In this document: positions 56,364 through 64,000 of the stretch, in pieces
How positions within the stretch are numbered: the first letter of the stretch is position 1
How the letters are laid out: every line of letters starts with the position of its first letter
DNA from: Cyanobacteria bacterium REEB446
GTDB taxonomy: Bacteria > Cyanobacteriota > Vampirovibrionia > LMEP-6097
Length of the DNA stretch: 64,000 nt
Reading direction: 5' to 3'
Assembly (NCBI GenBank): GCA_018970325.1
Contig: JAGWWP010000002.1
Location: forward strand, 24,693 to 88,692
Notes under the pieces: generated by a model
Databases searched by the model: none
Told to the model about the DNA's origin: nothing
What the model saw: the letters and a program-made list of their open reading frames with translations, nothing else
Program-made: the position numbers and the translations under genes

Positions 56364-57461
56364 ATGGTATTTAGAGGTTTAAAAACATGGCTGCCATCTG
56401 ACGTTAGAAAGCAGCTCGCGATAAAAAATAAGCTGGTAGCTCTTTATGAAAAATGGTCTTATGAGCCAATAGTAGTGCAGAGTTTAGTAGATTTAGATGT
56501 TATAAATAGGGCGAATAAAAAATTTACCGATAAAACTTTTACATTTCTAGATAAAGATGGTGAGACTCTTGCTCTGAGAACAGAGATGACTCAGCCTATC
56601 GCTAAGGCGATAGCAGGCAGGGCTCAAGAACTTCAGTTCCCAGTGAAGCTTTACTATAACGCTTCTGTCTATCGTTATAAAGGCACTCCTACTGATGAAT
56701 CTAGAGAAATACAGCAAGTCGGCATAGAGTATGTCGGTGCTAAAGCTGAAGAGAATTTTTCCGATTATGAAGTACTGCAACTAATGATAGATTCTATTGA
56801 GGGGTTAGGCGTAAGTGATTATCAAATATGCATCACCGACGCTAAAATCTGGCATAGCTTATTTACTAAATTTAACAAACCAGTCCCAGTAATCAGTTCA
56901 GAGGCTTCCTCTAGCCATGATTTAATTACTAAGGCTTATAACCTTTTACTTAAAGGTGAATTTGTCGCATTTGAAAAATTAGCTGCTGAAGAAAGTTTTC
57001 TTAAGTGTCTTTATAGCCGAGAGCAAATAAGCTTATCTATTCCAAATGAAGAGAAGTTGAAAAGAGTTGAGAAGGATTTAGGTTTAGATTTAAGTCACTT
57101 AAAGAGTTTGGCTCAGCTTTCTTCTAAAATAGTCTTCGCGCCTTATCAGTGTCCAGATCTAAAGCTCTATACAGGACTGCATTTTAAGCTGTTAATTAAA
57201 GGACAGGGTAATGATATCGCTATGGGTGGTAGATACGATAATCTATATTCAAGCTTTGGTATCGATCTGCCAGCGATAGGTTTCGCTTTTTATGTGCAAA
57301 GATTAATTTCAGCATTATCTAATTTAGATCTTTTAGATAATTTTTCTACTGATAAGCTTCCGAAGAAGCTTTCTCCAGCTACTAAAGAATGGGGGGATGT
57401 TTATAAAGCAGCTCAGCTTGAGTTTGAGAAAGGAGCGAATGTTTTAATATGCAACAAGTGA
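56364..57461 (+). CDS. hisZ: ATP phosphoribosyltransferase regulatory subunit (HisRS-like, no anticodon-binding domain)
   Basis: Class II aaRS-like catalytic core (motif-2-like LRTEMTQP, GGRYD) without a C-terminal anticodon domain. It overlaps hisG by 13 nt. Confidence 0.7.
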   Translation: MVFRGLKTWLPSDVRKQLAIKNKLVALYEKWSYEPIVVQSLVDLDVINRANKKFTDKTFTFLDKDGETLALRTEMTQPIAKAIAGRAQELQFPVKLYYNASVYRYKGTPTDESREIQQVGIEYVGAKAEENFSDYEVLQLMIDSIEGLGVSDYQICITDAKIWHSLFTKFNKPVPVISSEASSSHDLITKAYNLLLKGEFVAFEKLAAEESFLKCLYSREQISLSIPNEEKLKRVEKDLGLDLSHLKSLAQLSSKIVFAPYQCPDLKLYTGLHFKLLIKGQGNDIAMGGRYDNLYSSFGIDLPAIGFAFYVQRLISALSNLDLLDNFSTDKLPKKLSPATKEWGDVYKAAQLEFEKGANVLICNK

Positions 57462-58087
57462 AAATAGCTTTATCTAAAGGCGCTCTTTTAGAAGGTGCTA
57501 TAGAGTTTTTTAGTAAAGCTGGTATTGAAATTGAAAATGGTGAAGATGCGAAACGTAAATTAATTCGCCGCAGTACTATTCATAATGAGGCTTTTAAAGA
57601 CTATGATATTCAATTCCTTATGGTAAGAGGGCATGATGTGCCAGTCTATGTAGAACATGGTGCTGCTGACTTCGGTATAGTAGGGCTAGACGTGATTTTA
57701 GATTCTAGGGCTAAGGTGCATCAGCTTCAGGATTTAAAATATGGGGCTTGTGATCTCTGTGTCTGTTCTGTGCAAGGCAAGTATAAGAGTGTCTCTGAGC
57801 TGCCTAGCTATACACGTGTTGCAACGACCTTTCCTAATTTAGCGAAAGATTTTTTTCACCAGCGCGCGCTTGAAGTTGAGATTATTAATCTTTATGGTTC
57901 TGTAGAACTCGCACCGCTTACTGATCTTACCGATGTGATTATAGATTTAGTGGCTACAGGAAAGACTTTAAAGGAAAATGGCTTAGAGCCTATTCATAAA
58001 ATTATGCATTGTACTGCTCATTTAATTGCTAATCCTACGGCGTTTGAGTTTTATAAGGGGTTTTTTGCTGGGCTTGTTGGGGAGTGA
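57449..58087 (+). CDS. hisG: ATP phosphoribosyltransferase (short form)
   Basis: MQQVKIALSKGALLEGAIEFFSKAGIEI...VATGKTLKENGL. The 212-aa short HisG needs HisZ. Confidence 0.85.
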   Translation: MQQVKIALSKGALLEGAIEFFSKAGIEIENGEDAKRKLIRRSTIHNEAFKDYDIQFLMVRGHDVPVYVEHGAADFGIVGLDVILDSRAKVHQLQDLKYGACDLCVCSVQGKYKSVSELPSYTRVATTFPNLAKDFFHQRALEVEIINLYGSVELAPLTDLTDVIIDLVATGKTLKENGLEPIHKIMHCTAHLIANPTAFEFYKGFFAGLVGE

Positions 58088-58096
58088 GTATGGGAT

Positions 58097-61608: not shown

Positions 61609-63342
61609 GTGGATTCAGACAATTTTAAAATTATAAATGTTTCAAAAGATTCAGTAACAATAGAGATATTAGATTCTGCTAAATTTGATGATCAGTTTAA
61701 TATCGGAAGTTATATAAAAATCCCATATAAAAATAAAGAAAACTATTTTATTATCGGAATTATTAATGATTATAAAGTTAAGAATCTTGACGCTGCAAAT
61801 CCAGATGGTGAGAGCCTTAGTAATCATTTTGTTATAAATGTGCAGTTAATTGGATCTTACGGCAAGGAGAAGGAAAAGTTTATTTTCACAAGAGGCTCTC
61901 ACGGAATTCCACTACCCCCAAGCAATGGCATTGAGCTGTTATCTAAGGACGATTATGAAAATATATATGGCTCAAGTATTAAAGACTCTCAGAGATTTAC
62001 TTTCTCTAAATTGTTACAGAATGGCGGAATACCAGTACGTTGCAATGGCAATAAATTTTTTAATAAGCATTTTGCCATTGTTGGCTCTACTGGATCTGGT
62101 AAATCTCATACTGTAGCATCGGTTTTACAACAAGCAATCAAGGAAAAGGAAGAAGGCTTTGAGGGGCTTAATAATTCCCATATTATTATTTTTGATATCC
62201 ATGGAGAATATCAAAAAGCTTTCCCTGAGGGTAATCACATCAATTCAGAGAATATAAAGCTCCCTTACTGGCTATTTGACAGTGATGAATTAAGTGATTT
62301 ATTTATAGAGAGTAGTGAAAGCAATTCTCACAATCAAGTTTCCCAGTTTCGTTTTGCGGTGACCCAAAATAAGAAAAAGCATAATCCATTACAAGCTCAG
62401 GAAAAAATATATTTTGATTCACCCTTCAAATTTAGTATTGATGAGGTAATTAACTATATTAAAAATATTAATAGTGAGTTAATTAACAAGAAAAATTCAA
62501 GAATTCCTGAAGACAAGACGGGTAAAAAGTTTCTTAATAGATTACCAGAATATTTTAATCAAGAATATAGCTTTGACAAGACAAATGGTGATTTTGTTAA
62601 AGGTCCTTATACTGATGATTTTGAGCGTTTTATACTCAGACTGGAAGCTACCATAAAGAATCCTCGTCTGAAATTTTTATTCGAGAATGTAGATAATTTT
62701 TCTTTAGAAAGTGTGCTCAAACAATTTTTAGGTTACGAAAACAAGAAAGCAAATATTACAGTTATTGATCTATCTGGTATTCCTTTTGAAGTTTTAAGTA
62801 TTACAGTGTCTTTAATTTCAAGAATATTGTTTGAATATGGCTACTATTATAAAAAAATGTTGTCGGAGAGAGAGCTTTGTGAAACACCAATTCTGCTGGT
62901 TTATGAAGAAGCTCATAAATATGTTCCAAGAAGTGATCTCGTTAAATATCGTGCATCAAAGAATGCTATAGAGAGAATTGCGAAAGAAGGTAGAAAGTAT
63001 GGTGTTACTCTAGGCATTGTAAGTCAGAGACCATCTGAGATTTCAGAAACAATTTTTTCTCAGTGTAATAATTTCCTGGTAATGAGATTAACTAATCCTG
63101 ATGATCAAAATTATGTAAAGAAGCTCTTACCTGATACCCTTGCTGATTTTACAAACCAATTATCTTCATTACAAGCAGGAGAAGCATTAGTGATTGGTGA
63201 ATCTATTGTATTGCCATCTCTGATAAAAATAAATTTCCCTGAAAATGAACCTGAATCTACAGATATACCATATCTAGAACTTTGGAAACAAAAATGGAAA
63301 GACGTTGATTTTGATTCAGTTGCCAAAAAATGGAAGTTATAG
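61609..63342 (+). CDS. HerA/FtsK-superfamily (DUF87-type) ATPase
   Basis: Walker A FAIVGSTGSGKSH, Walker B ILLVYEEAHKYVP, and the downstream GRKYGVTLGIVSQRPSEISETIFSQCNNFLVMRLTNPDDQ typical of HerA-like helicases. GTG start 4 nt after the upstream stop, with AAGGAG 10 nt upstream. Confidence 0.7.
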   Translation: MDSDNFKIINVSKDSVTIEILDSAKFDDQFNIGSYIKIPYKNKENYFIIGIINDYKVKNLDAANPDGESLSNHFVINVQLIGSYGKEKEKFIFTRGSHGIPLPPSNGIELLSKDDYENIYGSSIKDSQRFTFSKLLQNGGIPVRCNGNKFFNKHFAIVGSTGSGKSHTVASVLQQAIKEKEEGFEGLNNSHIIIFDIHGEYQKAFPEGNHINSENIKLPYWLFDSDELSDLFIESSESNSHNQVSQFRFAVTQNKKKHNPLQAQEKIYFDSPFKFSIDEVINYIKNINSELINKKNSRIPEDKTGKKFLNRLPEYFNQEYSFDKTNGDFVKGPYTDDFERFILRLEATIKNPRLKFLFENVDNFSLESVLKQFLGYENKKANITVIDLSGIPFEVLSITVSLISRILFEYGYYYKKMLSERELCETPILLVYEEAHKYVPRSDLVKYRASKNAIERIAKEGRKYGVTLGIVSQRPSEISETIFSQCNNFLVMRLTNPDDQNYVKKLLPDTLADFTNQLSSLQAGEALVIGESIVLPSLIKINFPENEPESTDIPYLELWKQKWKDVDFDSVAKKWKL

Positions 63343-63366
63343 AATGTGTCAGTGTGGAGATAAGCT

Positions 63367-64000
63367 ATGACGAAAGAAAATTCTAAAACAGATGAAATAA
63401 TCATCTATACTGCTGCTGATGGTAGTGTGCAGGCAGAAGTTAAGATAGAGTCTAATACTCTCTGGCTCACTGAAAAGCAGATTGCTACGGTCTTTGAACG
63501 TGATAGAACGGTTATTGGGCGACATATTAAAAACATCATAAAAACAGGAGAATTATTAGAAGAAGGCAATGTGCAAAAAATGCACATTGCAAATTCTGAT
63601 AAACCAATTTCTTACTTTAGCCTTGATATGATTCTCTCAGTCGGTTATCGAGTTAATTCTATGAGGGGTACACAGTTTCGTATCTGGGCAAATCGTGTAC
63701 TTAAGGAATACCTTATTCAAGGCTATGCGATCAATCATAAAAAAATTCAAGAAGAGCGTGACAAGTTTACTCGTCTTCAAAAATCAATTCAGCTACTAGA
63801 ACGAAGTCTTACAGAAAATATCGAAAATATAGAAGATGCCCGTGGCATAGTCCGTCTTTTAACAGAATATGCAAAGGGCTTAGATATTTTAGATGATTAT
63901 GATCATGAAACTCTTGAGTATAAAGGAAAAACCACAAAACCTGCGATTATAATTTCTCCAGAAGAATTTCTTGAAGTCGTAGAAACTATGCGACGTGATT
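63367..64000 (+). CDS. RhuM-family protein (virulence RhuM / DNA-binding); its C-terminus runs off the window end
   Basis: TEKQIATVFERDRTVIGRHIKNI...YFSLDMILSVGYRVNSMRGTQFRIWANRVLKEYLIQGY matches the conserved RhuM core. The frame is open to position 64000. Confidence 0.7.
   Translation, partial: MTKENSKTDEIIIYTAADGSVQAEVKIESNTLWLTEKQIATVFERDRTVIGRHIKNIIKTGELLEEGNVQKMHIANSDKPISYFSLDMILSVGYRVNSMRGTQFRIWANRVLKEYLIQGYAINHKKIQEERDKFTRLQKSIQLLERSLTENIENIEDARGIVRLLTEYAKGLDILDDYDHETLEYKGKTTKPAIIISPEEFLEVVETMRRD

Follow-up and report, generated by a model that had tools for sequence, protein, structure and literature searches.

What do the genes lodged between hsdM and hsdS of a type I restriction-modification (R-M) operon encode, and do they depend on the surrounding R-M genes or on one another? 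This question is raised by the right-hand end of a stretch of 64,000 nucleotides (nt), here called the window, from Cyanobacteria bacterium REEB446 (assembly GCA_018970325.1, contig JAGWWP010000002.1, positions 24,693 to 88,692 of the forward strand), an uncultured, low-GC metagenome-assembled genome (MAG) of the Caenarcaniphilales, which are non-photosynthetic Cyanobacteria. A first-pass annotation, made from the letters of the sequence, had described five tightly packed genes downstream of hisZ and hisG, namely hsdM, a Bro-N gene, a gene for a nuclease-like protein, a gene for a HerA-type ATPase and a RhuM gene; their order, coordinates and spacings were reproduced exactly in our list of open reading frames (ORFs). 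Comparisons of sequence and predicted structure suggest that the locus is very probably a type IB R-M operon carrying three independent passengers between hsdM and hsdS, which are a Bro-N protein of the PDC-S13 family, a DUF4297-HerA anti-phage pair and a RhuM-Fic protein of the PDC-S23 family.

A predicted DUF4297 nuclease and its HerA partner

The gene at 60390–61604 on the + strand encodes a protein of 404 amino acids (aa), named hypothetical by NCBI, which we assign to the DUF4297 family of Cap4-like PD-(D/E)xK nucleases. The DUF4297 model of PADLOC (PDLC02187) matches its residues 15–331 (E = 4.4e-29), and a single-sequence search of the PDB retrieves 8XAV_G (2.5e-12), the DUF4297 chain of a DUF4297-HerA complex solved by cryo-EM. 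A profile built from an alignment of 52 homologues, which was also used to assess residue conservation and to predict the structure with AlphaFold2, matches 8XAV_G at 2.7e-35, pairing positions 11–387 with positions 9–393 of 394, and 8ZIQ_A at 1.7e-24. For the AlphaFold2 model (predicted local distance difference test, pLDDT, 85; predicted template-modelling score, pTM, 0.75), the top three Foldseek matches in the PDB are 9C1M_G (7.8e-19), 8ZIQ_A (6.2e-18) and 8ZGI_A (1.7e-14), each with a probability of 1.0 and each the DUF4297 chain of a different, independent HerA-DUF structure. These are followed by the Cap4-type nuclease LmuA (9NXX, E = 5e-5) and a Hachiman structure (8ZUE, 4e-4).

At the level of single residues, D47, Q56 and K58 align with the D40/Q53/K55 triad of Escherichia coli DUF4297, mutation of which abolishes nuclease activity and defence according to the E. 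coli study (PMC11291478). Together with E43, these three residues are invariant in the 52-homologue alignment, marking E43, D47, Q56 and K58 as the putative catalytic residues. Structure prediction, fold search and PDB profile all lead to DUF4297 chains, bearing out the earlier description of the 404-aa protein as nuclease-like and of the DUF4297 type, and indicating a full-length homologue of DUF4297 nucleases with a predicted C-terminal assembly domain. The first-pass annotation had also allowed that the HerA-associated family might have a new variant here; this is not supported, since the 404-aa protein is homologous to DUF4297 along its whole length and has the published triad.

Directly downstream, at 61609–63342 on the + strand, lies the gene for the predicted partner, a HerA-type hexameric ATPase/translocase of 577 aa (Pfam DUF87, 5e-35; PADLOC HerA model PDLC02188, 4.7e-208). 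Among PDB sequences it matches the HerA chains of these same DUF4297-HerA complexes, 8XAU_A (1.4e-155), 9C1M_M (1.5e-129) and 8ZIQ_M (1.6e-129). The Walker A motif GSTGSGKS spans G159–S166, with K165 corresponding to K157 in E. coli HerA; the Walker B motif VYEEAHK contains E433/E434, corresponding to E426/E427; and the trans-acting R/K pair (KEGRKYG) is R462/K463, corresponding to R455/K456. The C-terminal hook YLELWKQKWKDVDFDSVAKKW is also conserved, aligning with the E. coli hook in a residue-level alignment. Functional roles of these E. coli residues are described in the same study (PMC11291478).

The two genes form a conserved pair. A genome-wide scan with the DUF4297 alignment yielded 80 loci from many phyla, and in 73 of them a HerA gene stands directly 3′ of the DUF4297 gene on the same strand; in six of the other seven the contig ends too early, leaving one locus (L079) without HerA. 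Full-length homology, the catalytic triad, the HerA motifs and this pairing together substantiate the idea that the 404-aa protein and the ATPase make up a nuclease-HerA module of the DUF4297-HerA type, and in every feature that can be checked from sequence the pair agrees with such a system.

Several observations weigh against this assignment, or against the wider reading of the locus as one operon. Pfam, including PF14130, gives no match to the 404-aa protein at an E-value of 0.01, nor at 10. The NCBIfam model NF042945 (DUF4297_antiphage) matches it at 4.2e-41 with 141 bits, below the cut-off of 300, and the corresponding model NF042944 (HerA_antiphage_2) gives the HerA protein 713 bits, below the cut-off of 850. 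Identity of the 404-aa protein to solved DUF4297 proteins is ~18–19%, and whole-chain TM-scores are modest at 0.39–0.48, with single-domain TMt values of 0.67–0.74. Lastly, scanning the island for promoters and terminators yielded 43 and 8 candidate sites, respectively, where 48.7 and 7.3 were expected, which is the chance level, so that the single-operon reading derives solely from gene spacing.

Since both NCBIfam equivalog scores lie under their cut-offs, the pair is best described as divergently related to the tested systems rather than orthologous to them; the NCBIfam and Pfam cut-offs are thresholds of models, not biological features. The low whole-chain TM-scores compared with those of the domains probably reflect domain orientation. 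Because Pfam was silent, identification of the 404-aa protein required PADLOC, NCBIfam and searches of PDB sequences and folds. None of the 120 homologues listed for this protein (P0001–P0120) carries a precomputed Pfam domain, most of them being unnamed or hypothetical, and this DUF4297 subfamily thus appears to be invisible to PF14130, which constitutes an annotation gap.

A type IB R-M operon and its other passengers

The island begins with hsdM (58097–59551, + strand), which encodes a type I R-M methyltransferase of 484 aa with HsdM_N and N6_Mtase domains (Pfam) that matches the PADLOC MTase_I model over its full length (1.5e-159). Sequence past the window end was read from an identical public contig of 20.6 kb (L001; window coordinate = L001 + 51608), which revealed, directly downstream of the RhuM-Fic gene, both hsdS and hsdR, where the first-pass annotation had expected them. 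The hsdS gene, at window-equivalent positions 64353–65528 (L001:12745–13920, + strand), encodes 391 aa with Methylase_S in two stretches, and hsdR (window-equivalent 65532–67865, + strand) encodes 777 aa. Since hsdR scores above the curated cut-off of the EcoAI/FtnUII family model NF046051 (833 bits versus 550), the R-M system is classified as complete type IB. The R-M genes match all three of the PADLOC models MTase_I, Specificity_I and REase_I, and these matches, with those of Pfam and NCBIfam to hsdM, hsdS and hsdR, uphold the proposal that genes are embedded in a type I R-M operon here.

By these family assignments, the complete type IB (EcoAI-family) operon, hsdM...hsdS-hsdR, lies between hisG and a gene for a class I aminoacyl-tRNA synthetase, the latter read 3′ of hsdR on L001. 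The left flank is housekeeping: hisZ (56364–57461, + strand, 365 aa, PF13393, E = 3.9e-48) is 98% identical at the aa level in all relatives and lies outside the island, and hisG (57449–58087, + strand, 212 aa, PF01634, E = 8e-49) forms its left boundary. The seven genes from hsdM to hsdR all point the same way and are spaced -4 to 24 nt apart. In order, hsdM starts 9 nt after hisG and overlaps the Bro-N gene by 4 nt (GTGA), and gaps of 2, 4 and 24 nt follow as far as the RhuM-Fic gene.

The first passenger gene (59548–60387, + strand, GTG start) encodes a Bro-N domain protein of 279 aa, in which the Pfam Bro-N domain covers residues 13–110 (5.4e-8) and the PDC-S13 hidden Markov model of PADLOC covers residues 2–275 (2.5e-122). 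The last, on the 3′ side of HerA, encodes a RhuM-Fic/DOC protein of 329 aa with PF13310 (5e-21) and PF02661; the window contains its residues 1–211 (63367–64000, + strand), the gene ending at window-equivalent position 64356, and the PDC-S23 model covers residues 8–326 (1.2e-123). Judged by their scores, the family matches of hsdM, Bro-N, HerA and RhuM are not chance. The defence role of PDC-S13 and PDC-S23 is itself a prediction, according to bioRxiv 10.1101/2024.01.29.577857. The label DinD-like, which had been attached to the Bro-N protein, found no support: no NCBIfam model matched this protein at E ≤ 0.001, a search that included no direct comparison with E. coli DinD.

In base composition, the Bro-N gene has a GC content of 0.406 and a GC content at third codon positions (GC3) of 0.368, both clearly higher than in every neighbour (GC3 0.21–0.30), which hints at an origin apart from both the R-M genes and DUF4297-HerA.

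Related R-M operons as a cargo site

We next consider how often such operons carry cargo. Among 539 relatives of hsdM in metagenomes, the best 80 (L082–L161) were kept, being 71–81% identical to the window hsdM, and cargo was counted in the 44 of these 80 loci in which hsdM through hsdR are visible. Compact hsdM-hsdS-hsdR operons account for 15 of the 44, while 29 have extra ORFs between hsdM and hsdS, between hsdS and hsdR, or in both slots. The commonest cargo is RhuM (7–9 cases), followed by Schlafen/AlbA_2 (5) and Fic (5), then YhcG/DUF1016 nucleases, ORF6N, IS200 transposase and Bro-N (3 each); RES, RelA/SpoT, AAA_13 and others were seen singly. Homologues of the Bro-N protein, 42–78% identical, occupy either slot of related R-M operons. 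Both Bro-N and RhuM families thus recur as cargo, confirming that they are recurrent passengers of type I R-M loci, as had been noted earlier.

DUF4297-HerA occurs in 0 of these best 80 of 539 hsdM-relative loci. One of them, L161 (1726–5648; hsdM 73% identical), has the order hsdM, Bro-N (PDC-S13, 1.7e-129), a UvrD/GajB-like helicase, AbiV HEPN, DUF4145 and hsdS, which by family assignment places another cargo after a Bro-N gene of this type.

Seen from the side of the pair, the two nearest upstream ORFs at each of 67 DUF4297-HerA loci (131 ORFs in all) include N6_Mtase 8 times, Methylase_S 6 times and RhuM 4 times, and a RhuM gene lies directly 3′ of HerA in 7 DUF4297-HerA loci. From these upstream and downstream counts, embedding of the pair in R-M operons is a recurrent minority context. 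Embedding in R-M operons is itself published, as ‘guilt by embedding’, by Payne et al., the source of the PDC candidates (bioRxiv 10.1101/2024.01.29.577857); no publication matched RhuM, type I restriction and embedding in combination.

Strain variants at one chromosomal site

Close relatives, in which hisZ and hisG are 97–100% identical at the aa level, present three architectures at one site, with hisG immediately 5′ of the island in all of them. Architecture A, found in the window, in L001 and in L002, the latter being the locus of the nearest genome (a Candidatus Caenarcaniphilales MAG), has the order hsdM-BroN-DUF4297-HerA-RhuMFic-hsdS-hsdR. Architecture B (L162–L164 and L168–L170) is the same without RhuM-Fic, with hsdS starting within ~10 nt of the HerA stop. 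Architecture C (L165–L167) consists of hisG-BroN-DUF4297-HerA only.

Scars of the missing R-M genes are preserved in architecture C. The first two codons of hsdM (ATG TTT) are joined in frame to the Bro-N start (L165:3990–4030), hsdS is gone, and the final 30 hsdR codons (97% identical) lie 37 nt 3′ of the HerA stop (L165:7820–7945). In L166, the tail follows the HerA/hsdS junction of architecture B in the alignment before switching abruptly to the 3′ end of hsdR. These hsdM and hsdR scars, together with the L166 junction, indicate that architecture C derives from B by two deletions that spared the trio, and since Bro-N, DUF4297 and HerA are kept intact there, the embedded genes are independent of the R-M genes. 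Architecture C is also the only hint that Bro-N belongs functionally with the pair. A scenario in which Bro-N and RhuM are old passengers, with DUF4297-HerA inserted between them, was considered and softened, as Bro-N travels with the pair in architecture C.

Two further differences between strains were observed near or within the operon. The hsdS genes of L001 and L002 are only 40% identical, target-recognition domains being exchanged among variants; the second target-recognition domain of the window-strain hsdS (aa 195–378) is 81–84% identical to the first-domain position in L162 and L168. Elsewhere in the window, a gene at 52153–53259 on the - strand, upstream of the GAPDH gene, encodes a DUF4172 and Fic protein of 368 aa. 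In L168, the nearest called gene on that side of GAPDH is an ORF of 54 aa, followed by an AhpC/redoxin-like gene, and the DUF4172 and Fic gene may therefore be variable between strains too.

Evolutionary rates and mosaic alleles

Ratios of non-synonymous to synonymous substitution rates (dN/dS) are 0.26–0.36 for DUF4297 and 0.15–0.33 for HerA, indicating that both genes are under purifying selection and not decaying. Between the window and L002, the values are 0.34 and 0.33, respectively, and 0.03–0.10 for hisZ, hisG, hsdM, hsdR and RhuM-Fic. Divergence from L002 is unevenly distributed along the pair: the DUF4297 nuclease domain (codons 1–150) and HerA codons 401–577 are near-identical, whereas DUF4297 codons ~151–404 (60840–61604) and HerA codons ~251–400 (62359–62808) diverge, with nucleotide identity down to 0.64. 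HerA codons 301–350 reach a dN of 0.75 and a dS of 1.7. The variable blocks are flanked by identical sequence, and the high dS within them argues that the mosaic arose by recombination with diverged alleles. These blocks mark candidate surfaces that may serve in sensing phage or in evading phage inhibitors.

Positive selection, in the sense of diversifying point mutation, was considered for these blocks and set aside; gene-wide dN/dS is below 1 and dS reaches 1.7 in the divergent blocks, which recombination fits better. The case for recent horizontal acquisition from composition proved weak: GC content is 0.285 in DUF4297 and 0.315 in HerA, below the 0.353 of the window, but at third codon positions the two genes (GC3 0.24) fall within the range of the neighbours.

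Alternative explanations

The joint survival of three genes in architecture C invites the view that Bro-N (PDC-S13) is a lineage-specific third component of DUF4297-HerA, serving as a DNA-binding trigger sensor, a regulator or a brake in a three-gene unit. Bro-N, DUF4297 and HerA stand together in all three architectures, including the one without any R-M gene, and Bro-N is tightly packed, with its 2-nt gap to DUF4297 and its overlap with hsdM. The C-terminal half of DUF4297 and the HerA insertion region evolve fast and as mosaics, which would fit signal-reading surfaces, and a third component, if real, would explain why exactly Bro-N-DUF4297-HerA survived loss of the R-M flanks. Even so, we consider this quite unlikely: of the 67 other DUF4297-HerA loci for which upstream sequence is available, only that of the sister genome L002 has Bro-N directly 5′ of the pair, and PDC-S13 homologues occur in related R-M operons without DUF4297-HerA (L095, L118, L136 and L161). 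In addition, the two-gene systems of E. coli and Bacillus protect alone, as PMC11291478 describes, and the deletion end points of architecture C could reflect chance or microhomology.

A broader interdependence would make all seven genes one composite system, in which HerA-DUF4297 processes restriction products or is held in check by methylation status. The co-orientation and close spacing of the seven genes are in keeping with this, and a minority of unrelated genomes (L026, L030, L033, L036, L040, L046, L058 and L064) likewise have the pair beside hsdM/hsdS and RhuM. Yet R-M genes lie within two ORFs upstream in only ~12% of the 67 DUF4297-HerA loci scanned, the pair is absent from the best 80 of 539 hsdM relatives, architecture B lacks RhuM-Fic, and architecture C retains the pair without any R-M gene, making a composite system very improbable. 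Finally, the HerA-nuclease pair could be a housekeeping machine for DNA-end resection or repair, of the archaeal HerA-NurA kind, or a remnant of a prophage or mobile element, for the HerA protein also matches models of repair HerA (1e-44), and phages and genomic islands commonly carry Bro-N and RhuM domains. This we regard as extremely far-fetched, given that the partner is DUF4297, with no NurA or Mre11/Rad50 partner at the locus; that HerA fits best in the anti-phage clade (713 bits versus 150 bits for repair HerA); and that gene calling turned up no integrase, tRNA or phage structural genes at the locus, whose housekeeping flanks are shared by every relative. We accordingly retain the description of the locus as an R-M operon with independent passengers, one of them a predicted DUF4297-HerA anti-phage pair.

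Proposed mechanism and significance

The E. coli system offers a template for how the pair may work. According to PMC11291478, HerA of E. coli forms by itself a split-spiral hexamer that is inactive, and DUF4297 by itself a dimer with almost no activity; the two assemble into a complex of ~1 MDa, in which two six-membered layers of DUF4297 sit on a planar HerA hexamer, and this assembly switches on ATP hydrolysis and non-specific cleavage of double-stranded DNA. Infected E. coli lose host and phage DNA, an abortive-infection phenotype. A second study, bioRxiv 10.1101/2024.10.24.620088, agrees with this account.

By homology with the solved E. coli and Bacillus systems, the window HerA hexamer would carry two rings of six DUF4297 subunits, again at ~1 MDa. 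Assembly would flatten the HerA ring, turning on ATP hydrolysis and DNA translocation, and would dimerise the N-terminal Cap4-like nuclease domains, which would then cut double-stranded DNA irrespective of its sequence. In an infected cell, the DNA of phage and host alike would be degraded, resulting in abortive infection. The R-M system may in this case provide a first, sequence-specific layer of defence, with the DUF4297-HerA pair as a second, suicidal layer. Complex formation, nuclease and ATPase activity, the trigger and phage protection of the window pair are what we infer from these relatives. Seen directly at the locus are the homology, the conserved catalytic residues, the conservation of the gene pair, the packing of the operon and the persistence of the cassette after loss of the R-M genes.

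Biological novelty is small, as the DUF4297-HerA system and R-M embedding are both already published and the window pair is an ordinary, though divergent, member. What the locus adds is an extension of a characterised system to non-photosynthetic cyanobacteria (Caenarcaniphilales). It also exposes a gap in annotation, in that Pfam is blind to the nuclease, NCBI calls it hypothetical and the NCBIfam equivalog cut-offs exclude both genes. The variants at a single chromosomal site, moreover, give a natural illustration of R-M-embedded cargo as modular and able to outlive its host operon.

Comparison with known systems

The closest characterised relatives are the DUF4297-HerA systems of E. coli (8XAU–8XAY, 8ZGI, 8ZIQ–8ZIT) and Bacillus sp. 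HMH5848 (9C1M–9C1O, 9C5X), which share with the window pair the order of nuclease then HerA and similar sizes (404 aa in the window versus 394–430 for the nuclease, and 577 aa versus 571–617 for HerA). The D/Q/K triad, Walker A and B motifs and R/K finger are identical, and the C-terminal hook is conserved. The window nuclease differs from these counterparts in being only ~18–19% identical and missed by PF14130, with both proteins under the NCBIfam equivalog cut-offs, and, unlike the stand-alone E. coli and Bacillus systems, the window pair sits inside a type IB R-M operon of a Caenarcaniphilales host.

Similarity extends to Cap4 (CBASS), LmuA (Lamassu), HamA (Hachiman) and Avs3, with which the predicted nuclease shares a Cap4-like PD-(D/E)xK fold in its N-terminal ~200 residues; the C-terminal domains and partners differ, the window system having no SAVED/cyclic-nucleotide sensor and no SMC-like partner. 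Sir2-HerA likewise combines a HerA-family ATPase with an upstream effector, but the window effector is a predicted PD-(D/E)xK nuclease instead of a Sir2 NADase, and a Pfam scan of the locus gave no SIR2 family match in neighbouring genes. Consistent with this difference, the window HerA matches 8J4U_M, which we take to be a HerA chain of the Sir2-HerA type, at 1.4e-27, more weakly than it matches the DUF4297-HerA chains.

In its setting, the pair resembles the genes lodged within type I R-M, BREX and DISARM operons that are described by Payne et al. (bioRxiv 10.1101/2024.01.29.577857), whose examples include PrrC as a system nearly always embedded in type I R-M. As in those cases, the cargo is co-oriented and placed between hsdM and hsdS/hsdR, and it comprises known systems as well as the candidates PDC-S13 and PDC-S23. 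The window operon differs from them in accommodating three separate cargo units in one slot, and its variants document both gain or loss of RhuM-Fic and full loss of the R-M genes.

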